Virus genome (UHGV): UHGV-0178950 | DNA length: 27,946 bases | Reading direction: 5' to 3' (one strand) | Origin: a virus | Part shown: piece after piece, positions 8,639 through 27,946 of the stretch | Position numbering within the stretch: the first letter of the stretch is position 1 | How the letters are laid out: the number at the start of each line of letters is the position of its first letter | Program-made: the position numbers and the translations under genes | The notes under the pieces: generated by a model | The model's input: only the letters and a program-made list of their open reading frames with translations | Database searches by the model: none | What the model was told of the DNA's origin: nothing

Positions 8639-11600
8639 ATGCGATCAATCCAATTTAAACGCACACAAACGGCTGGTAAAAAACCAACGCCGGAACAATT
8701 ATCACAGGGTGAATTGGCTATTAACCTTGCTGATCACGTTCTGTATACCAAAGATAAAAATAACGCAGTAGTTCAAATCTCTGTTTCTCCAGAAAAACAT
8801 GCTGAACTTAACACGAAAGTAGACCAGAATAAAACCAACACTGACCGTGTTATTGCTTCCAACAAACAAGAGGCCGCTAATAATCTGGCTAGTGCTAAAG
8901 CTGAACTGAATCAGACTATTACCACGAAAGATACAGCGACCAATAAGCGCATTGATGCTACCAACACCACTGTTAGTAACTTAACCCAGACAGTTACGGC
9001 AAATAAAACCGATGCCGACACTAAGATCAATAACCTTACGGGGACCGTATCTGCGAATAAGACCGCAATTGAAAGAACCGTTGCCGCAAACAAATCTGAT
9101 GCAGATAGCAAACATGCAGCTTTAACGAAAACGGTCACTGACAATAACACCGCGATTAACAACAAGGTTAATACCACTAACACCAACGTTAGCAACTTAA
9201 CTAAAACTGTTACTGCAAATAAAACCGATGCAGATAACAAAATTTCTAGCTTAACTAGCACGGTTGCAGCTAACAAGACAGCGATCGAAAAGACTGTTTC
9301 CGACAATAAGAAAGACGCGGATACTAAGATTACCAATCTTACTGGCACTGTTAATAGCAACCATACCGCAATTAACAACAAGGTAGACCAGAATAAATCT
9401 TCTACTGATGCCGCAATTGCAGCCGCTAACAAACGAATTGATGGTATTGAAGGTAGCAATGATGCTCTTTACATCAAGAAGAATACCAATACTAAGCATG
9501 GTGGGTATCTGTTAAGCAAGACAGCTAACTATCTGGAAGACCAGACATCACGAGATCTTAACTACTTTGGTGCTTTCCGTACCAATGGTCAAGATGGACT
9601 CATGGATCTAACTCTTAATGTTCCTCATTCTGCCGGTAAAGCGCACGGTCGCGGATTTACTTTCCGTTATGCGTCTGGTGGATCTCGTGTTGAAACCTAT
9701 GGTTTTGATAGAGAAGGACAGAAGAACTTTAGCTATAAGATGTATCACGAAGGTGATAAGCCGACTCCTGGCGAGATTGGCGCATACACCAAAGCCGAAG
9801 TTGATAAGATGTTTGTTAAAAACGTCGTTATGTCTGTTCCCAATTCTAGCGAAAACGTATCTGCATATTTCAAATTGGCAACCGCAACAATTCCACAAAA
9901 CGGGCGTAGTGTGTTTTTCCGTATTCATGGTGGTAATGGTTACAACGTTACGGCATATGATCAGGTTGACGTAGTAGAAATTCTTCTGCGTAGTGGTAAC
10001 GATAGACCTAAAGGTCTTAACGTAATTGCATACCGTAGAAATACAAACAAAGATTTTGAGGTATTTGCTGTCAATACTTCCGGTGATAACTATGATATCT
10101 ACGTGAAATATCAGCGTTATACCGATAACGTTATTGTCGAATATGGGAAATCTGTTTATGTAAGTTTGACGGTTTATGATACGCCGGAAGCCACGTTAAT
10201 TAAACCTTCCGTTGGTGTTATCGGTGGTCGCAACGTAACTCTTTTTAATACTGAAAATAAACGTGGTGTGTTAAGTTTTGATGATAACACACAAAACAGC
10301 TATGACATTGTTCATCTAAGTAATGATAAAGGTACTGGACGGAAATATATTCGTAAATTCCGTAGCAACTATAACGAAATGGTTTGGCATGAAACCGTTC
10401 AGGGTGCTGTATATCGTCTTGCTACTGGTGCTACAGATTCTACAGAAGTTATTAGAATTGATTCTAATAGTGCAATACCGGGTAATTATAAAGGATATGT
10501 AATTACTGGTAAAATGGAATTGCACGGTAGTGGTAATGCGATGACTTTACATCGACAGACTGGTCAAGCTGCATATATGGCGTGGTGGGATCGTCGTGAT
10601 GGTAAAAACCAACGTAGTGGTTATATCGGTCATGCGGATGGTACTAGTGATGGTTTTGTGTGGCGTAATGATGTTGGTGCTAACTCATTTGATTTGGAAG
10701 GTAGTGGACAAGTAAATTTGACTACAGGAAAAACAAAAATTGTATATACCAATGGTCAATATTATTCCGCTAACGCTGATGCATTCCGTATGATTTACGG
10801 TAAGTATGGTGCATTCTGGCGAAATGATGGTGGTAAAGTTTATCTGTTGTCTACTGCCGAAAATGATAGATTTGGTGGTTGGAATACATATCGACCTTTT
10901 ATCTACGATCTTACTTCCGGTAACGTTCAATTAGGTGGTGATGGAAACGAAGATGTATTAACTCTAGAACGCGCAAGCAAGGCCGCTCGATTCTCTGGCA
11001 ACGCTTACATCAAAGGTCAACATTTAACATTTGATGCTGGTGCTGGACAATCCCGCGATTACTTCCGGTTTAACCATTGGGGCGATAGTAATAACGCTCG
11101 CGATAACATCCTACAGATTGAAGACAGTCAGGGTGCACACTTTACCACTGAACGCGCTATGGGTACTGGCAATATCACAGCACGTTTTAAAGGCTTTGTG
11201 CGTGTAGAATCCGGTGAGATTGCCTTTGATGCTAATCGTGGATCTGCGTCTCAATTTACCTTACATACATGGGGTAACGAGCAACGCAAACAGGTTTTTG
11301 AATGTAAGGATGCTACTAGTTATCATTGGTATACCGAACGTACAAACGGTGGAACTGGTCCTATCCTGTTCTCTGTTGCTGGTACATTAAAAACTGCGAG
11401 CAATATACAGGTTGGCGGTGCTGATATTGAGTTTCGTCGCAGTGGTAATAAGCATTTATGGTTTAGAGATCCGAACGGTTTAGAATTAGGTTTGATGTAC
11501 TGCGATGATGCTGGTGTTATCCGCTTCCGTGGTCAGAAACAAGGTCAAACTTGGAAACTTGCTGATAAAATGATTCATCTTGAGGCGGGGACTGTCGGCG

Positions 11601-12241
11601 GGTCTGATAAAGGTTTGATTCGTGGTAATGTTGCTGGTGGTAGCTGGGCTAGCTGGCGTGATCGTTCTGCCGGAATCCTCGTAGACTGTCCGAACTCAAC
11701 CGATTCCGCTCATAACATCTGGAAAGCGACTCATTGGGGAAAATATCATATTGCGGCAATGGGTGTGCATGTTCCTAGTGGTACTATTACCAATGCTTTA
11801 GCTCGCCTAAACGTTCACGACGCCAACTTTGACTTTAACGCTGCGGGTGATTTTAGCGCAGGTCGTAACGGTAGCTTTAACGATGTTTACATTCGCTCTG
11901 ACTCCCGTTTGAAGATTAACAAGGAAGAATTACAGGACGGTGCATTAGAGAAAGTAAACTCACTGAAAGTCTACACCTACGATAAAGTTAAATCTCTTTC
12001 CGATGACACGGTGATTAAACGCGAAGTAGGTATTATTGCTCAGGATCTGGAAAAAGTATTGCCGGAAGCAGTAGGTATTCAATCCACAGAAGATCCAGAA
12101 CAACCGGAAGCAATCAAGACTATTTCTAACTCTGCTGTTAATGCCTTGATTATTAAAGCTATGCAGGAAATGGACGCCAAATATAAAACACAGATCGAAG
12201 CATTACAGAAAGAAATTGCCGAACTGAAAGCAACTAAATAA
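8639..12241 (+). CDS. Long tail fibre with C-terminal intramolecular chaperone (peptidase S74-like) domain
   Basis: 1200 aa; N-terminal KKPTPEQLSQGELAIN box; Thr/Asn/Lys-rich tandem repeats; C-terminal SDSRLKINKEELQ...VYTYDK...GIIAQDLEKVLPEAV resembles the self-cleaving chaperone of L-shaped fibres and endosialidases. Confidence 0.8.
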   Translation: MRSIQFKRTQTAGKKPTPEQLSQGELAINLADHVLYTKDKNNAVVQISVSPEKHAELNTKVDQNKTNTDRVIASNKQEAANNLASAKAELNQTITTKDTATNKRIDATNTTVSNLTQTVTANKTDADTKINNLTGTVSANKTAIERTVAANKSDADSKHAALTKTVTDNNTAINNKVNTTNTNVSNLTKTVTANKTDADNKISSLTSTVAANKTAIEKTVSDNKKDADTKITNLTGTVNSNHTAINNKVDQNKSSTDAAIAAANKRIDGIEGSNDALYIKKNTNTKHGGYLLSKTANYLEDQTSRDLNYFGAFRTNGQDGLMDLTLNVPHSAGKAHGRGFTFRYASGGSRVETYGFDREGQKNFSYKMYHEGDKPTPGEIGAYTKAEVDKMFVKNVVMSVPNSSENVSAYFKLATATIPQNGRSVFFRIHGGNGYNVTAYDQVDVVEILLRSGNDRPKGLNVIAYRRNTNKDFEVFAVNTSGDNYDIYVKYQRYTDNVIVEYGKSVYVSLTVYDTPEATLIKPSVGVIGGRNVTLFNTENKRGVLSFDDNTQNSYDIVHLSNDKGTGRKYIRKFRSNYNEMVWHETVQGAVYRLATGATDSTEVIRIDSNSAIPGNYKGYVITGKMELHGSGNAMTLHRQTGQAAYMAWWDRRDGKNQRSGYIGHADGTSDGFVWRNDVGANSFDLEGSGQVNLTTGKTKIVYTNGQYYSANADAFRMIYGKYGAFWRNDGGKVYLLSTAENDRFGGWNTYRPFIYDLTSGNVQLGGDGNEDVLTLERASKAARFSGNAYIKGQHLTFDAGAGQSRDYFRFNHWGDSNNARDNILQIEDSQGAHFTTERAMGTGNITARFKGFVRVESGEIAFDANRGSASQFTLHTWGNEQRKQVFECKDATSYHWYTERTNGGTGPILFSVAGTLKTASNIQVGGADIEFRRSGNKHLWFRDPNGLELGLMYCDDAGVIRFRGQKQGQTWKLADKMIHLEAGTVGGSDKGLIRGNVAGGSWASWRDRSAGILVDCPNSTDSAHNIWKATHWGKYHIAAMGVHVPSGTITNALARLNVHDANFDFNAAGDFSAGRNGSFNDVYIRSDSRLKINKEELQDGALEKVNSLKVYTYDKVKSLSDDTVIKREVGIIAQDLEKVLPEAVGIQSTEDPEQPEAIKTISNSAVNALIIKAMQEMDAKYKTQIEALQKEIAELKATK
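8978..9409 (+). repeat. Two tandem copies of a 216-nt (72-aa) coding repeat inside the fibre gene
   Basis: NLTQTVTANKTDADTKINNLTGTVSANKTAIERTV... repeated as NLTKTVTANKTDADNKISSLTSTVAANKTAIEKTV..., period 216 nt (8978 to 9194). Confidence 0.7.
11896..12241 (+). other. Predicted autoproteolytic chaperone domain of the fibre; cleavage predicted at the Ser-Asp of SDSRLK
   Basis: SDxRLK-type motif at 11896-11913 followed by about 110 residues with a coiled-coil tail. Confidence 0.55.
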
Positions 12242-12248
12242 TAAAAGT

Positions 12249-12267
12249 CGGGGGACTAGTTCCCCCG
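12249..12267 (+). terminator. Hairpin after the fibre gene
   Basis: CGGGGGA-ctagt-TCCCCCG; weak T-tract, so terminator status uncertain. Confidence 0.4.
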
Positions 12268-12298
12268 TTATAAACAATTTTAATTAAGGGGTAATTCT

Positions 12299-12775
12299 AT
12301 GTCTCAGCAATTTAAAGATATTTTTACTGGTGGTCTGGTAAGTATGTTCTATCACGCCGATACCACTAACACCGATCTTGCACATGAAAGCTATGAAGAA
12401 ATTAAAGAGTGTGCTGGTTTTCCTGAAACTGGTATCGAGCGCGGCACTGTAGAAGTTAAATCCTTCTCTTCTCAGTACAACCGTAAGCTGGTAGGTAAAC
12501 TGAATGTTCCTGATCTGACTCTGACCGTTAACTACATTCCAGGTGATGCTACTCACGCTAAACTGGATAAGGCTGCCGAAGATGGTACGCGTATTCAGAT
12601 TAAGATTGAATATTATGTTGATGCTGGTAAGCAGACTGGTATTCGCACCGCTTTCAACGGCTTTATCTCTAAAGCTGCTATGCAGGGTGGCGACGAAGAA
12701 GTTGTAACCAAAGAATATACTTTTGCGGTTGATGGTGCTCCGATCAAACAGGAAGTGTTTACCACTGGCGGATGA
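12299..12775 (+). CDS. Abundant virion protein, candidate major tail tube protein, 158 aa
   Basis: Strong optimal codon bias as in the capsid domain; AAGGGGT Shine-Dalgarno; sits upstream of the G/T chaperones and tape measure; paralogous to the N-terminal half of the 7727 gene; a decoration protein is an alternative. Confidence 0.55.
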   Translation: MSQQFKDIFTGGLVSMFYHADTTNTDLAHESYEEIKECAGFPETGIERGTVEVKSFSSQYNRKLVGKLNVPDLTLTVNYIPGDATHAKLDKAAEDGTRIQIKIEYYVDAGKQTGIRTAFNGFISKAAMQGGDEEVVTKEYTFAVDGAPIKQEVFTTGG

Positions 12776-12901
12776 ACTAACGAAGAACTTCCTTTACCAG
12801 AATCGGAACCACTGCCGGAACATGAAGCGGTGGTGATTCCAGAAGTAGAAGAAGTTACGGCGAAAGCCACAGCAAAACGAGGCCGCAAGGCTAAGAATTA
12901 A
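12776..12901 (+). other. In-frame 41-codon extension after the major tail TGA stop; candidate readthrough product
   Basis: Open in frame 0 after TGA at 12773-12775; encodes TNEELPLPESEPLPEHEAVVIPEVEEVTAKATAKRGRKAKN; shares an identical 20-mer (gttacggcgaaagccacagc) with 6911-6930. Confidence 0.3.
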
Positions 12902-12906
12902 TTTTA

Positions 12907-12935
12907 AGCCCTGCCTTAATGGTGGGGCTTTTTTA
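12907..12935 (+). terminator. Rho-independent terminator after the major tail gene, same stem as 6964-6991
   Basis: AGCCCTGCC-ttaat-GGTGGGGCT followed by TTTTTT. Confidence 0.7.
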
Positions 12936-12949
12936 TTGGAGTAATCAAA

Positions 12950-13456
12950 ATGGCAAATGTCGTTAAAGTTCCTGGCTGGATCGGGTCATCTGCTGTATCG
13001 GTGACGGGTAAGCGATGGATGAAAGAAGCATTAACAGCTTTAAAAGTTCCGGCTCCGCGTAATATGTCGGCAATGGCTGGTCGTGGTATGGATACGGTTG
13101 TAGCTACTGCATCGTGGTCTACTTCATTGGGTAATAACTGGGGTGTAACTGCTTCAAACTATCCTGTTTCCGGTATGCAAAGCAAAGGATCTATGGAGAA
13201 CCCCGAAAACGTGGGCGTAGGGCGTCTGGTTGGCGTTATCGTTGGTCAATTCAATGGCGGTACTCCTACTATGGCTGTATATCTCCAGAACGGTAGAGCG
13301 GGGAATATAACCGTTAATTTGGGTGGTGCTGCTGTCACTGTTCCTTATAACAGTATGCAAAGTGGTTTTCATTACTATTGGTTAAGCAATCCTCCGGCTG
13401 CTTTCCTAACAAATATTAAGAAGACTGGCACTAAGCAGACTTTGAAAATCTCTTAA
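12950..13456 (+). CDS. Hypothetical tail-associated protein, 168 aa, Gly/Ser/Thr-rich
   Basis: ORF with GGAG Shine-Dalgarno; ordinary codon usage; lies between the tube candidate and the chaperones. Confidence 0.5.
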   Translation: MANVVKVPGWIGSSAVSVTGKRWMKEALTALKVPAPRNMSAMAGRGMDTVVATASWSTSLGNNWGVTASNYPVSGMQSKGSMENPENVGVGRLVGVIVGQFNGGTPTMAVYLQNGRAGNITVNLGGAAVTVPYNSMQSGFHYYWLSNPPAAFLTNIKKTGTKQTLKIS

Positions 13457-23429: not shown

Positions 23430-23777
23430 ATGGCTAAAAATATTTTCACTGAATTTCCTACTTATCCGGTCGATCAGCTTTCCGGTATTTTTATTAATGG
23501 CATTAGTCCAGAATCAATGACTTATGATTTTGAGGCGAAGAGAGTTAAACATAAACAATATAAAGAATGTATCCGTGACCATGAAAAGGGGACCGTGTTT
23601 TGTGTCGCTACATTGGCTAAACGTCCTAAGTATCGTTTTCGTGTCGGGCAAGAAGTCGATGTAGTTAATCCTTATAGCTTTAATTGTCTGGGCGATGCAC
23701 GCGCGGTGTGTGTAGGTACTGCTCCTTATTATATCAAGGGTATGCGCTTTATTGGTTATATCTTCGAAATGATCTAA
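23430..23777 (+). CDS. Hypothetical protein, 115 aa
   Basis: ORF preceded by a hairpin whose 3' arm supplies a GGGGGT Shine-Dalgarno. Confidence 0.55.
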   Translation: MAKNIFTEFPTYPVDQLSGIFINGISPESMTYDFEAKRVKHKQYKECIRDHEKGTVFCVATLAKRPKYRFRVGQEVDVVNPYSFNCLGDARAVCVGTAPYYIKGMRFIGYIFEMI

Positions 23778-23786
23778 GGGGGTAAT

Positions 23787-24140
23787 ATGTTAAGCAAACA
23801 TTTTTCTCGCAAGGAATTTAAATGTAAATGCGGAAAATGTGATTATGATACAATCGACGCTGAATTACTGGTAATTCTTGAGGATGTACGAGAGCACTTC
23901 GGTAAACCAGTGATTATTAACAGTGGCAACCGTTGCCCGACTCATAACAAGAATGTAGGCGGGGCAGCCAATAGCTATCACGTTCGAGGCCGTGCGGCTG
24001 ACATTGTTATCAAGGGTGTCTCACCTGATATTGTTCATGCTTATCTTGATGGGAAATATCCTACTCAATACGGCTTAGGAAAATATAAAACATTTACGCA
24101 TATCGATTCCAGATCAAAAAAATCACGGTGGAATGGATAA
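23787..24140 (+). CDS. Endolysin, zinc peptidase M15 family (YcbK-like / Peptidase_M15_3 type)
   Basis: 117 aa; KCKCGKCDYD Cys box, RCPTHNKNVGG, SYHVRGRAADI and FTHID motifs match the zinc-ligand pattern of M15 cell-wall peptidases; AAGGGGGT Shine-Dalgarno. Confidence 0.8.
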   Translation: MLSKHFSRKEFKCKCGKCDYDTIDAELLVILEDVREHFGKPVIINSGNRCPTHNKNVGGAANSYHVRGRAADIVIKGVSPDIVHAYLDGKYPTQYGLGKYKTFTHIDSRSKKSRWNG

Positions 24141-24143
24141 AAC

Positions 24144-24172
24144 AAAAGCGCCTCTGGTGGGCGCTTTTTTGT
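24144..24172 (+). terminator. Rho-independent terminator closing the + strand late operon
   Basis: AAAAGCGCC-tctggtg-GGCGCTTTT followed by TTTTT. Confidence 0.8.
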
Positions 24173-24340
24173 TAGAATATGCTGGCGACGTTAGCTATAT
24201 TTCTGACCATTTTTTCATTATAGACAAATATACCGCAGACGATAAAGTCGTTTTGACGAAGTAGATCCGTCTCTGGTTGAAGTAATGAAAGAACCGGAAG
24301 ACCTAGAGCTTGATTTAAGCCAATTATAGACTCTCTAACG

Positions 24341-24375
24341 CAATTAAATTAAAAAGGGGTACGGATGTACCCCTT
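24341..24375 (-). terminator. Rho-independent terminator for the minus-strand recombinase operon
   Basis: Perfect 9-bp inverted repeat AAGGGGTAC-ggat-GTACCCCTT; the T-rich run lies on the minus-strand transcript (CCCCTTTTTAATTTAATT). Confidence 0.6.
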
Positions 24376-24411
24376 AAAGCGTTTGGTTCGTTATACGGCG
24401 ATTTAGGCCGC

Positions 24412-24684
24412 CTATGATTTATTTTCTTGTTCTATGAAAATCTTTCTCACCTCATCAGAATAAATGTCTAGTGATTCCTCATAACATTTTCTGTATTCAT
24501 CGTAATTACTGGTGGTCTTTTGACATAGCAATTTCAATGTCTTATGTGCTCCATCAATGAAAGCATCTTCTCTATAGGTTAGCGGTCTACGCATTTCTTG
24601 GTCTACGGTTGCCAATGCCAAGCAAGAATTCATAGATAAAATCAAACCTAAAATCTTAATCATCTTCATTAGCTTAAATTCCAA
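24412..24684 (-). CDS. Small secreted or lipoprotein-like protein, about 85-90 aa
   Basis: N-terminal signal peptide MKMIKILGLILSMNSCLALA with a possible AxA cleavage or atypical lipobox; two Cys in the mature part; overlaps the recombinase 3' end by 11 nt. Confidence 0.55.
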   Translation of the reverse strand: MEFKLMKMIKILGLILSMNSCLALATVDQEMRRPLTYREDAFIDGAHKTLKLLCQKTTSNYDEYRKCYEESLDIYSDEVRKIFIEQENKS

Positions 24685-26353
24685 ATTCTTGTAATGGACC
24701 TGGTATTTCTTCTTCTGGTTTCCAGTTCTTATCTGTCAGCATGTCTAAACATGGATGCAGAACAAGCCCGTTACTCTCCAGAATCTGCCTATCATTGATA
24801 GTCTTCAAATCAACGAAGATCCGGCCTTTCCTCGGTCCTCTTGAATTTTCTATTACAACTCTCTGGGTCTTGCCATCGATGTATTCCAGTACAAACAAGT
24901 TTTTGTACTTGTCAATCCTGCTACACCCGATCCGTTTTAGAGCTTGCTTAATCTTAAACCGGACCTTAATGCGATCCTCGTTGTAAACATCTTCTAAATC
25001 AAATTCTGCGAGCTTCTCCCAGCCTTGAGAGTCAACAGAATACATTTCCTCTTCTGCCATCTTAAGTTGATTGTAGAGTGTTTCACGCTCGCTATTGAGG
25101 GTAGTAATCTGATCGGCTAGCTCCTTCGTTGCTCCTGTCATAGCAGAAAGGGTAATCAGGTTATCAATCTTGCGTGATATTTCATCAATCTGTACTTTCA
25201 AAGCCGGAACCGGATTAGCCTTATCTTCAGCAATCCAGATTTTATCAGCCAGCAATTGCAATACAGCTTTCTCTAATTGGTCGCCGCGAAAACTCCAGTT
25301 TGTATGCACACATTCAATACGACTAGAGCGCATTGCATCGCATGAATAACGATATTGGTTAGGCCGTCTGTTTGTTCCTTTCACCTTAACCATAGCGGAA
25401 CCGCAATGTTCACATTTCAGCAGATTAACACCACTAAGCAGGGGGATCGGTTTAGCTTCTTCTTTGTCTCCATAGTTACATGCTCTAACACCAATGCTTT
25501 TCTTAAGGTGATAAAACTCAGCGTCATCTAGCACACGAGGGTAATAATCCTTTAACTCATACTTAACGCCATCTACAGAGATTTCCTTGATACCAATCAA
25601 AGCGCGGGTATGGAACAACCTTTCAATCATTGCTCGTGACCAGTTTGAATGCCTCTTGTGACTTGCGGCTGGTGGTGGTGTATATGTCGCGTTAAGGTGA
25701 TCCAGTATCTCGGCGGTAGACCGTCCATTCCTGCGTAATTCCACAACCTCCTGAACAATAGGGAAGAAGACCGGATCGGGACACACATAACCGGAAGTGG
25801 TATCAGTCCACCACATATTCTTTCCAACTTCCTCGATTGCCACAGCCGGATTTTGTGGATTTTCTTGATGAGCTTTAATCTTAATCAGTGCGCTTGAGTT
25901 AGTACGATTGCGCTTAGTCTGGCTTTCCTCATTACCACGGATGAATAAAAGGATGGAGAACATCAGGTCCATCGGGTTAGCGGTAACAGTATCAAGCGAG
26001 TAGATCTTGTTATCCATGCCAGTAACAATGGTTATCCCCCTACGGATGATTGAAAGGAATAACTCCTGCGCACTGACAATATCGGCACGGGATAAACGGT
26101 CCAAGTTTTCGATGAATAGCCAGCTACCAACAGGAACGGATCTACCTATTGCATCAAGGAAACGAGATAGCGCCCCTGTTTTGGAGTTAGCACCCTTAAA
26201 CGCAGATACACCCAGATCCTGATAATCATTTACCAGTTCAAGGTCATACTTTACCGCAATCTCTCTAGCCATCCTGATTTGTCGTTCATAACTCGAACCA
26301 TCATTCTGACGCATAGACGAGAAGCGAATATACGAATACAGTTTAGTTTTCAT
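24674..26353 (-). CDS. Large serine recombinase (integrase/resolvase superfamily)
   Basis: N-terminal catalytic domain YSYIRFSSMRQ...SYERQ...ENLDRLSR, zinc-ribbon-like CEHCGSAM...YRYSC, C-terminal coiled coil; start set at the ATG encoding MKTKLYSYIR, the ORF track extends to a TTG at 26368. Confidence 0.85.
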   Translation of the reverse strand: MKTKLYSYIRFSSMRQNDGSSYERQIRMAREIAVKYDLELVNDYQDLGVSAFKGANSKTGALSRFLDAIGRSVPVGSWLFIENLDRLSRADIVSAQELFLSIIRRGITIVTGMDNKIYSLDTVTANPMDLMFSILLFIRGNEESQTKRNRTNSSALIKIKAHQENPQNPAVAIEEVGKNMWWTDTTSGYVCPDPVFFPIVQEVVELRRNGRSTAEILDHLNATYTPPPAASHKRHSNWSRAMIERLFHTRALIGIKEISVDGVKYELKDYYPRVLDDAEFYHLKKSIGVRACNYGDKEEAKPIPLLSGVNLLKCEHCGSAMVKVKGTNRRPNQYRYSCDAMRSSRIECVHTNWSFRGDQLEKAVLQLLADKIWIAEDKANPVPALKVQIDEISRKIDNLITLSAMTGATKELADQITTLNSERETLYNQLKMAEEEMYSVDSQGWEKLAEFDLEDVYNEDRIKVRFKIKQALKRIGCSRIDKYKNLFVLEYIDGKTQRVVIENSRGPRKGRIFVDLKTINDRQILESNGLVLHPCLDMLTDKNWKPEEEIPGPLQEFGI

Positions 26354-26359
26354 ACCATT

Positions 26360-26402
26360 TCCAAACAAAAACGCCCCTACCGCGTATTATAACGATAGGG
26401 GC
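26360..26402 (-). terminator. Hairpin plus T-rich run on the minus strand between the secreted-protein gene and the recombinase; loop contains TATAAT
   Basis: GCCCCTA...TAGGGGC stem; minus-strand downstream GTTTTTGTTTGG. Confidence 0.4.
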
Positions 26403-26416
26403 TAGGTGATTAAAGA

Positions 26417-26836
26417 TTAAAGAATTTCACGGCAGCTAATCAGGGAATAAGACGTATCACCTTTTTTAACATCAAATATAGGCGCGCCATCTACAGAATG
26501 CAGATATTTGATGTAGGATTTACCATCTTCGGAACCATAATATTCTTCTTTCTCGTTCTTATCTTCTTTCAGTTTTGGACTTTTGATTGTTTTATCAAAT
26601 ACCGGATCGTTGAAAGCAAATTGACTATTATCATCATTCACTCGAACCTTTACACCGATAAAACTACGGTATTTGCCAGACGGCGCATGATAATAACGGT
26701 CGCCATCACTCAGGTAGCGTGTATCATCTCCTTTATATTCGAAGTAGGAATTGCACACATAATAGGTATAGGTATTAGCATTCGCAGCACCAACCAAACC
26801 CAGAGCAAGAACAACACCAGCGATAATCTTTTTCAT
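26417..26836 (-). CDS. Secreted Tyr/Asp/Lys-rich protein of unknown function, 139 aa
   Basis: Signal peptide MKKIIAGVVLALGLVGAANA with AxA cleavage site; two Cys in the mature protein. Confidence 0.6.
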   Translation of the reverse strand: MKKIIAGVVLALGLVGAANANTYTYYVCNSYFEYKGDDTRYLSDGDRYYHAPSGKYRSFIGVKVRVNDDNSQFAFNDPVFDKTIKSPKLKEDKNEKEEYYGSEDGKSYIKYLHSVDGAPIFDVKKGDTSYSLISCREIL

Positions 26837-26881
26837 AGTAGAATTTCCTCTTGTTGTTTGAATTACGATATATTTATATCA

Positions 26882-27004
26882 TTAAAAGTTAATGCTAATA
26901 ATCAGACCAAACACAACCGCACCAATCAAATCAATCCAGTTAATACACAGCGAATATTCTTTCTTGAATGTCTTAGATGAAATGCCATCATGAAATTGTT
27001 TCAT
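26882..27004 (-). CDS. Candidate 40-aa membrane micro-protein (not in ORF track)
   Basis: ATG preceded by GGGGTGAG; encodes MKQFHDGISSKTFKKEYSLCINWIDLIGAVVFGLIISINF with a C-terminal hydrophobic helix. Confidence 0.3.
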   Translation of the reverse strand: MKQFHDGISSKTFKKEYSLCINWIDLIGAVVFGLIISINF

Positions 27005-27007
27005 TGC

Positions 27008-27088
27008 TCACCCCATACTAACGACAATATAAGAAAGACTAATCATGGTTGTGAGACTACCTCCCACGAATGAGATAAAAGCTAACAT
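27008..27088 (-). CDS. Candidate 26-aa hydrophobic micro-peptide (not in ORF track)
   Basis: ATG with GGAG 8 nt upstream; encodes MLAFISFVGGSLTTMISLSYIVVSMG; its TGA stop abuts the start of the 40-aa ORF. Confidence 0.2.
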   Translation of the reverse strand: MLAFISFVGGSLTTMISLSYIVVSMG

Positions 27089-27144
27089 GTTTGATTCTCC
27101 ATTTAAAAAGCGGTGGGAATTACACCCACCAAATTAGAAATTAA

Positions 27145-27582
27145 TTAAGCGCGAACGATGGTCAGAGTATCCAGCAAACCTTTTTCGTATAATTCGAAAC
27201 ACGTTTTATATTGCTCAATCTTCCAACCGTAGCGGGTGATCTTATTCAGTAGAATAATCACGGTATTCTCATCTAGGTATTGTCCTTGCTTACCAATTAC
27301 ATATGACTCGCGGGATAGTCTCAGCTTACGGAAACCTTTAACACCTAATTCCTTAGCCACCGCTTTAACCTCGTTAATCTCACCTTCTGCGGCTACATAT
27401 TCAGCGTCGATAATCTCAGTTGATGATCTCAGTGCTACCAGAACTAAGGCCATTGCTTCTTCTTCGGTACGAGCAACACCAGCTTTCTCGAAAGTCATCT
27501 CACCAAATTTACGAGTCATAATATTGAACATTGTCTGTATTCCGTTTAAATCGGCGGGAATAGTACCCGCCAAATTAGACAT
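27145..27582 (-). CDS. Hypothetical protein, 145 aa
   Basis: ORF whose start overlaps the stop of the upstream 90-aa gene (operon arrangement). Confidence 0.55.
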   Translation of the reverse strand: MSNLAGTIPADLNGIQTMFNIMTRKFGEMTFEKAGVARTEEEAMALVLVALRSSTEIIDAEYVAAEGEINEVKAVAKELGVKGFRKLRLSRESYVIGKQGQYLDENTVIILLNKITRYGWKIEQYKTCFELYEKGLLDTLTIVRA

Positions 27583-27854
27583 TACTTCTTGCTGATAAAC
27601 TCTTTAGCGATAAAGTTGATTACTTCTTTCAGCTTCTTGTCTGTATCGATGCACGCTGGTAATTCTTCTTTAATATCCTGCGGCAGATACACATTGCCTT
27701 TAAAGTGGAGGAAACCATCATTACCAATCATGTAGGAGAACATCCATTCACAATCGTTATCCGCTTCCCAGAACGCCACGGTCTCATCCCCAATCAAGGT
27801 AATGTCCATGTTGCGACGCGCTGCGTAGTTGATGATTGCTTTACCGATGTTCAT
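27582..27854 (-). CDS. Hypothetical protein, 90 aa, first visible gene of the minus-strand accessory operon
   Basis: ORF with GAGGGGGT Shine-Dalgarno on the minus strand; an inverted repeat (GTACCC...GGGTAC, about 27861-27885) sits just upstream. Confidence 0.55.
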   Translation of the reverse strand: MNIGKAIINYAARRNMDITLIGDETVAFWEADNDCEWMFSYMIGNDGFLHFKGNVYLPQDIKEELPACIDTDKKLKEVINFIAKEFISKK

Positions 27855-27946
27855 TGTTGTACCCCCTCGTGTTATTGTGGGTACATGATATTTGGCAAAC
27901 CTAAACAGGAGATTACTCGCCTATTTAACTTGCACCATGCGACAAA

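Follow-up and report, generated by a model that had tools for sequence, protein, structure and literature searches.

A large serine integrase gene near the right end of an Escherichia coli prophage inserted in hicB

Large serine integrases such as those of phiC31, Bxb1, TP901-1, A118/Listeria innocua (LI) and SPbeta (SprA) share a domain order and a catalytic Ser/Arg motif. The enzymes of phiC31 and similar phages carry a four-Cys zinc ribbon with an embedded coiled coil and act on short, simple attachment (att) sites through a 2-bp non-palindromic crossover. Insertion takes place within a host gene; A118, for example, integrates in comK and SPbeta in spsM. The virus genome UHGV-0178950, analyzed here as a single stretch of 27,946 nucleotides (the window), encodes on its minus strand at 24674–26353 a protein of 559 amino acids (aa) that resembles the phiC31-type integrases in each of these respects and in its fold matches to integrase–att complexes. 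Its domains, its catalytic and zinc residues, and its fold identify the protein as an intact large serine integrase, very probably that of the prophage occupying the window.

The open reading frame (ORF) of the gene spans 24674–26368 on the minus strand. Its true start is the ATG at 26351–26353, with the TAA stop at 24674–24676, because all close homologues and the PGAP gene model in 99%-identical genomes share the 559-aa length. The protein is organized as a catalytic domain (residues ~1–125), an alphaE helix (127–164), a recombinase domain (~189–292), a zinc ribbon (312–377, with Cys314, Cys317, Cys338, and Cys348), a coiled coil (382–437), and an extra beta-rich region at the C terminus (~472–515). 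Pfam recognizes the Resolvase (PF00239, 2.1e-14), Recombinase (PF07508, 1.6e-7), and Zn_ribbon_recom (PF13408, 7.3e-9) families, and the PHROG match is to phrog_95, "integrase" (1.8e-58). Across 31 aligned homologues, down to 28% identity, R10, Q16, R24, Q25, D85, R86, and R89 are invariant, as are all four cysteines, and S12 is kept in at least 90%. The R10-F-S12 segment aligns with the R-V-S motif of 3guv, a solved resolvase-family domain.

Structural comparison leads to the same family. A search of the PDB with the single sequence gave only a weak N-terminal match, and profile and fold searches were required to go further. A family profile built from homologues matches phiC31, TP901-1, and the 500-aa integrase chain 9iu2 in the PDB. 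The AlphaFold model (mean predicted local distance difference test [pLDDT] score of 79) contains the catalytic domain, the long alphaE helix, the recombinase domain, the zinc ribbon, and the beta-rich extra region, and its helices 382–406 and 410–437 form the antiparallel hairpin of a coiled coil. Its best fold matches are full-length serine integrase–att complexes, phiC31 integrase, and the LI integrase–DNA complex 4kis, with 9dxd and 9tep also among the matched structures, at sequence identities of 12–15% in the fold alignments. An original prediction, made from the DNA letters, had proposed an integrase-type large serine recombinase rather than a small invertase, on the strength of a catalytic serine domain, a Cys cluster, and a coiled coil. 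The three domains, the length of 559 aa, and the serine-integrase fold bear this out, with R10 and S12, the four invariant cysteines, and the modeled hairpin at 382–437 accounting for the individual features. The same prediction had named disrupted catalytic or zinc-ribbon residues as a way for it to fail; in the alignment of homologues both sets are intact. Features of the serine-integrase family were found wherever they were checked, from the catalytic domain and the recombinase, zinc-ribbon, and coiled-coil domains to a simple attP and a conservative exchange.

There are also differences from the described systems. Relative to the phiC31-type integrases, the protein is only 12–15% identical, it has the extra beta-rich C-terminal region, its host is E. 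coli or Salmonella, and its targets are hicB, ycdX, and codB; its function is predicted from sequence comparisons. Small serine invertases and resolvases such as Hin, Gin, and Tn3/gamma-delta (~180–200 aa) match only the N-terminal domain, and that class is ruled out by the size of the protein and its recombinase, zinc-ribbon, and coiled-coil domains. The closest phage-encoded proteins, at 27–31% identity over 80–85% of the length, are the YbcK-like recombinases of lambdoid E. coli phages (4A7, Perceval, and others) and those of the Burkholderia phages Bcep176 (gp53), Bcep22, and JC1. These lambdoid phages use a tyrosine integrase. In their genomes, the YbcK-like gene lies ~40 kb into records of 47–50 kb, whereas the gene studied here is the sole integrase recognized in its element and lies 1.5 kb from the att site. 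A YbcK-type assignment was rejected: the identity is only ~31%, and neither annotation nor searches revealed a tyrosine integrase in the element.

The window itself is an integrated prophage, inserted inside hicB, with its right edge at 27897–27898. Of the ~35 kb of this E. coli prophage, the window holds the rightmost ~28 kb, followed by 48–50 bp of host hicB DNA. Over its last 55 bp, the window is 100% identical to the 3' part of host hicB, and this stretch by itself matches most E. coli chromosomes; the segment at 27897–27946 (plus strand) is the chromosomal, non-phage 3' fragment of the gene, with codons from Lys103 on. Window positions 23700–27946 are 97–99% identical to chromosomal segments in about 20 complete E. 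coli genomes. In E. coli CE0007a, the prophage is 99.4% identical over this interval and has hicB halves on both sides, which PGAP labels as "missing C-terminus" on the left and "missing N-terminus" on the right. Other complete copies measure 33–35 kb from att to att. The plus-strand genes at 778–24140 include those for a GpA-type large terminase, a portal, a fused protease–capsid protein, tail proteins, and an M15 endolysin.

Comparison of attL, attR, and empty attB sites in complete genomes defines the exchange; the original prediction had proposed to define attL and attR by searching bacterial genomes for prophage junctions. The attR site occupies 27871–27924 at the far end of the window, 1.5 kb upstream of the integrase gene, and consists of the P arm (27871–27896, GTTATTGTGGGTACATGATATTTGGC), the crossover AA (27897–27898), and the host B' arm from 27899 (ACCTAAACAGGAG...). 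The prediction had recognized no att site in the intergenic DNA beside the gene, and indeed there is none there; that DNA has terminator-like hairpins alone. At hicB, attL reads ...CGAATTGGC-AA-CCCGAATGTAGTC... and lies ~35 kb leftward, outside the window; attR in the window reads ...GATATTTGGC-AA-ACCTAAACAGG..., and the empty site reads ...CGAATTGGC-AA-ACCTAAACAGG.... The left part of attL joined to the right part of attR thus gives the exact hicB attB, with no bases gained or lost. The exchange is bounded on the left by lysogen attR sequences of AGGG-AA, AGGC-AA, or AGTG-AA against host TGGC and on the right by attL AA-CCCG against host AA-ACCT.

Relatives inserted in ycdX provide a second case. 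There, attL is CATCCCGGA-AA-CCCTAACG, attR is GATATTAGGG-AA-TCCCAAAT, and the empty site is CATCCCGGA-AA-TCCCAAAT, with the 2-bp AA as the only identity common to the three. At both genes, the exchange is therefore narrowed to AA, a conservative 2-bp crossover without target duplication. The possibility that the ycdX-type attP is 1 bp longer was ruled out by the empty ycdX site, and both types of attP are equal in length.

For the lineage of the window, the reconstructed 54-bp attP is GTTATTGTGGGTACATGATATTTGGC-AA-CCCGAATGTAGTCAACCCAAAATAAC, with GATATTTGGCAACCCGAATGTAG as the junction sequence. The hicB target, given here as 54 bp, is ...GCGAATTGGC-AA-ACCTAAACAGGAG.... The attP arms are symmetric about the AA at 18 of 26 positions (shuffle p <= 1e-4), forming an imperfect palindrome with an outer GTTATTnnGGGT motif and an inner TTnGGn motif; the attB sites show weak symmetry. 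A conservative, non-palindromic 2-bp crossover within a short imperfect palindrome is the signature of a serine integrase. The non-palindromic AA would set the orientation of the inserted DNA.

The enzyme probably works like the integrases of phiC31, Bxb1, A118, and SPbeta, and a mechanism can be proposed by analogy with the phiC31, Bxb1, and A118 enzymes. Integrase dimers would bind the ~54-bp attP and a site within hicB, and the two bound sites would synapse. Ser12 would then cut all four strands at the central AA, one pair of subunits would turn by 180 degrees, and the ends would be rejoined. The outcome is seen directly as an integrated prophage with hicB split within its helix-turn-helix (HTH) domain. 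Excision would be expected to require a directionality factor encoded by the phage. Transcription of the integrase gene probably runs from a hairpin/TATAAT element at 26373–26402 to a terminator at 24354–24375 and, in the lineage of the window, would include a small orphan ORF described below.

Insertion also changes the host protein. HicB consists of a HicB-like antitoxin domain (residues 3–67) and an HTH_3 domain (88–134). The crossover falls after Gly102, such that the lysogen encodes residues 1–102 followed by eight phage residues, NPNVVNPK; this destroys the DNA-binding domain and leaves the N-terminal domain in place. From this arrangement, we infer that regulation of hicAB would be altered and toxin neutralization kept.

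The assignment of the gene as the prophage's own integrase follows from its constant position, the lack of any other recognized integrase, and the 2-bp site found at the junctions of the whole element. In every relative examined, the integrase gene lies 0.9–1.6 kb from the right end of the element, and the neighboring genes on both sides vary. No second integrase or recombinase was found in the annotation of complete copies or in family searches of the left-arm proteins.

Relatives of the enzyme use different target genes. Among 12 hicB-integrated and 6 ycdX-integrated E. coli copies, 26 residues fully separate the two groups, and 25 of the 26 fall within positions 196–351, in the recombinase and zinc-ribbon domains. 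The catalytic domain (residues 1–165, window ~25859–26353) occurs as two alleles, ~80% identical, that have been shuffled independently of the DNA-binding domains and the target gene. Copies in Salmonella (68–74% identical overall) are also in ycdX, and a 71%-identical type is in codB. Between the hicB and ycdX types, the P arm of attP differs very little. In these alignments, target choice appears to track the DNA-binding domains, which is a correlation and not proof of cause. Durrant et al. 2022 (PMC10083194), a computational catalogue of large serine recombinases with predicted att sites, uses the same approach of comparing prophage ends with empty sites and describes related enzymes with different or multiple targets; the present att strings, and protein accessions, were not found in the part of its supplementary text that was searched.

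In a survey of 5426 complete E. coli genomes, 57 carry the integrase gene, always on the chromosome, and two of them have two matching places; a split ycdX is found in about 27 genomes. The integrase gene is intact in 54 of the 57 (a match over at least 80% of the gene). The original prediction would have been undermined had no integrated copies existed and had the gene been absent or decayed in relatives; integrated copies exist, and the gene is largely preserved among them. Outside this group, a scan of species-representative genomes returned a single match, a 512-bp contig (L062, JANCAF010000145.1) in an assembly of the actinomycete Actinacidiphila cocklensis, which holds an 82%-identical integrase fragment and is most likely contamination.

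Several results weigh against the gene being the integrase of the resident prophage. A degenerate pattern for the attP junction found nothing in IMG/VR, JGI metagenome contigs, or GTDB representative genomes, and a control pattern for attR found four. Every IMG/VR entry stops either at the att site or at a gene boundary and is therefore a cut-out prophage. Searches of phage and plasmid collections found no close relative of the element; in the phage collection, no close isolated phage relative was present, and the top match to the large terminase was phage DCP80 at 42.6%. No recognizable replication gene or CI-type repressor gene was found in the whole prophage (the window plus L011:13205–21445, the left arm of a near-identical copy), which has just a Rha/Ant-like regulator. 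Among the small prophage genes, no candidate for a directionality (excision) factor was recognized. In addition, the window's own attL falls outside the window, and its attP was reconstructed from 99%-identical genomes.

These results bear most directly on the possibility that the recombinase made past insertions and that the element is now a cryptic, immobile prophage in which the gene is a relic. The missing attP junction, the missing isolated relative, and the unrecognized replication and repressor genes all speak for such an element, and some copies do have insertion sequence (IS) elements or deletions. Nevertheless, a relic is unlikely. The integrase has stayed intact in nearly all carriers, and the sets of head, tail, and lysis genes are complete. 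Strains that are unrelated and come from many hosts and countries carry the element, which uses three target genes, extends to Salmonella, and displays heavy mosaicism and turnover of accessory genes. The wide distribution among strains, together with the mosaicism and gene turnover, argues for continuing horizontal spread. No excised or free-phage form was seen in the collections scanned, and the element, on these comparisons, may still be mobile.

The original prediction had also offered an either/or choice, a temperate lifestyle or a recruited mobile cassette, and so left room for the recombinase to be part of a separate nested cassette or transposon (TnpX/TndX-like) instead of the prophage integrase. 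The temperate half of that choice stands, on the basis of the integrated prophage and its att junctions. The cassette half finds no support for the integrase and fits only the small ORF beside it. The integrase gene is surrounded by a hot spot of variable accessory genes, which might suggest a cassette, but it keeps the same position in every relative as its neighbors change, no flanking repeats or att-like sites were found around it, the serine-integrase-type site with its 2-bp exchange lies at the junctions of the whole 33–35-kb element, and the DNA-binding domains co-vary with the gene that hosts the whole prophage. A nested cassette is accordingly very improbable. An invertase or resolvase that acts inside the phage genome, for tail-fiber switching or multimer resolution, can be dismissed almost entirely, since the N-terminal match to phrog_125 "DNA invertase" (1.7e-11) and the swapped-in fiber module at 8639–13456 are outweighed by domains that small invertases lack, by the prophage end being the sole good copy of the half-site in the window, and by junction data consistent with integration.

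With the gene taken as the integrase of the resident prophage, its surroundings can be described in more detail. The frame of the small ORF spans 24412–24684 on the minus strand; its likely start is the ATG at 24669, 4 nt past the integrase stop, giving an orphan protein of 85 aa (24412–24669) with a signal-peptide-like N terminus (MKMIKILGLILSMNSCLALA/TV). It is the only content of a 262-bp lineage-specific insertion that falls precisely at the boundary of the integrase stop and the conserved sequence downstream; in relatives, GCGGCCTAAATCG... and the terminator at 24354–24375 directly follow the stop. Two near-identical genomes were checked and have the ORF intact; PGAP does not call it. It forms one protein cluster, and its mature part is predicted from the single sequence as three helices (pLDDT ~90). 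No homologue was found among 5.8 billion clusters and 1.8 billion representatives, there is no Pfam, PADLOC, or NCBIfam match, and the model has no fold match in the PDB. Kinship to the LprI-like protein of the prophage was considered and rejected for lack of similarity. It is read here as probably a real, lineage-specific accessory gene that has the integrase's terminator in common. Co-transcription of the two genes, part of the original prediction, is plausible.

The convergence of this unit on the late operon, which the original prediction had described, is also evident. The endolysin gene ends at 24140, and a hairpin with T runs on either side (24144–24168) marks the end of the plus-strand late (lysis) operon and the point of convergence. 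From the other direction, an intrinsic-terminator-like hairpin on the minus strand at 24354–24375 (AAGGGGTAC-ATCC-GTACCCCTT plus a T run), conserved in relatives, ends the integrase/small-ORF unit. Upstream of the integrase, a third hairpin (26373–26402, minus strand) has an 11-bp stem, a T run, and a loop that contains TATAAT, and it sits directly before the ribosome-binding site. It is conserved in E. coli and Salmonella relatives despite a differing upstream gene and may serve as a terminator of upstream transcription, as the -10 element of the integrase promoter, or as both.

The genes on either side of the integrase change between copies. Upstream, a signal-peptide protein of 139 aa is encoded at 26417–26836 (minus strand), where many relatives have an unrelated 81-aa gene. 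Two small phage genes of 145 aa (phrog_14908) and 90 aa (phrog_6147) follow at 27145–27854 (minus strand), between the integrase and attR, and the content of this interval varies in relatives. The interval between endolysin and integrase (window 24141–24673; loci L004, L007, L008, L014, L018, and L049–L056) is a hot spot for accessory genes, and in relatives it holds genes for a GIY-YIG nuclease, a UvsW-like helicase, UvsY, CapR-like or Phage_Inh_N proteins, or a 332-aa protein. At 24250, the window lacks one T that is present in the 99%-identical loci L001 and L011, and a 65-aa ORF over the end of the endolysin gene is thereby shortened to 43 aa (24133–24264).

The fiber gene at 8639–12241 (1200 aa) shares ~80% DNA identity with gp37 of RB49-like T-even phages. 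It is bracketed by two tail-tube-like genes (7727–8560 and 12299–12775), and a gp38-like adhesin gene (12950–13456) lies just past the second of them. This whole region (7727–13456) is set within a siphovirus-type tail operon, and relatives have other fibers there. In E. coli PE15 (NZ_CP041628.1), the prophage copy at L012:8817–13470 bears ISApl1–mcr-1–pap2–ISApl1, placing colistin resistance within the element. The sole small-terminase-like gene (phrog_57) adjoins attL, ~6 kb from the large terminase. The left arm, which is outside the window, includes a conserved stretch of ~1.4 kb without an annotated gene (L011:17086–18534), and within it at least eight iteron-like copies of TTTTTGCCCCTGAAA are found at L011:17653–17847 with start-to-start spacings of 21–65 nt. 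This array might serve as an origin or bind terminase or a repressor. Rfam gave no match in the window or in the full prophage, the iteron stretch included.

Literature searches that combined hicB or ycdX with prophage, integrase, or serine recombinase, and a search for ybcK, returned nothing relevant and no account of this prophage family or of its att sites. The analysis settles the identity of the gene and locates an att site that had escaped inspection by eye. It also provides pairs of attP and attB that are ready to be tested for a serine integrase native to E. coli. The host genes that are split, for an antitoxin, a phosphatase, and a cytosine permease, are non-essential, and host phenotypes may change with insertion. 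Tentatively, and with considerable doubt, the family may be a natural target-switch series, in which the P arm stays nearly identical and P' closely similar, ~25 substitutions within 196–351 redirect the enzyme from hicB to ycdX, more diverged forms go to codB, the catalytic domain is swapped independently, and insertion in the HTH domain of HicB acts as a reversible switch that would abolish hicAB autoregulation and spare the toxin-neutralizing domain. The hicB/ycdX/codB target series is the most useful by-product of the work: a handful of closely related natural enzymes that differ in chromosomal target and could help to show how the recombinase and zinc-ribbon domains read DNA.

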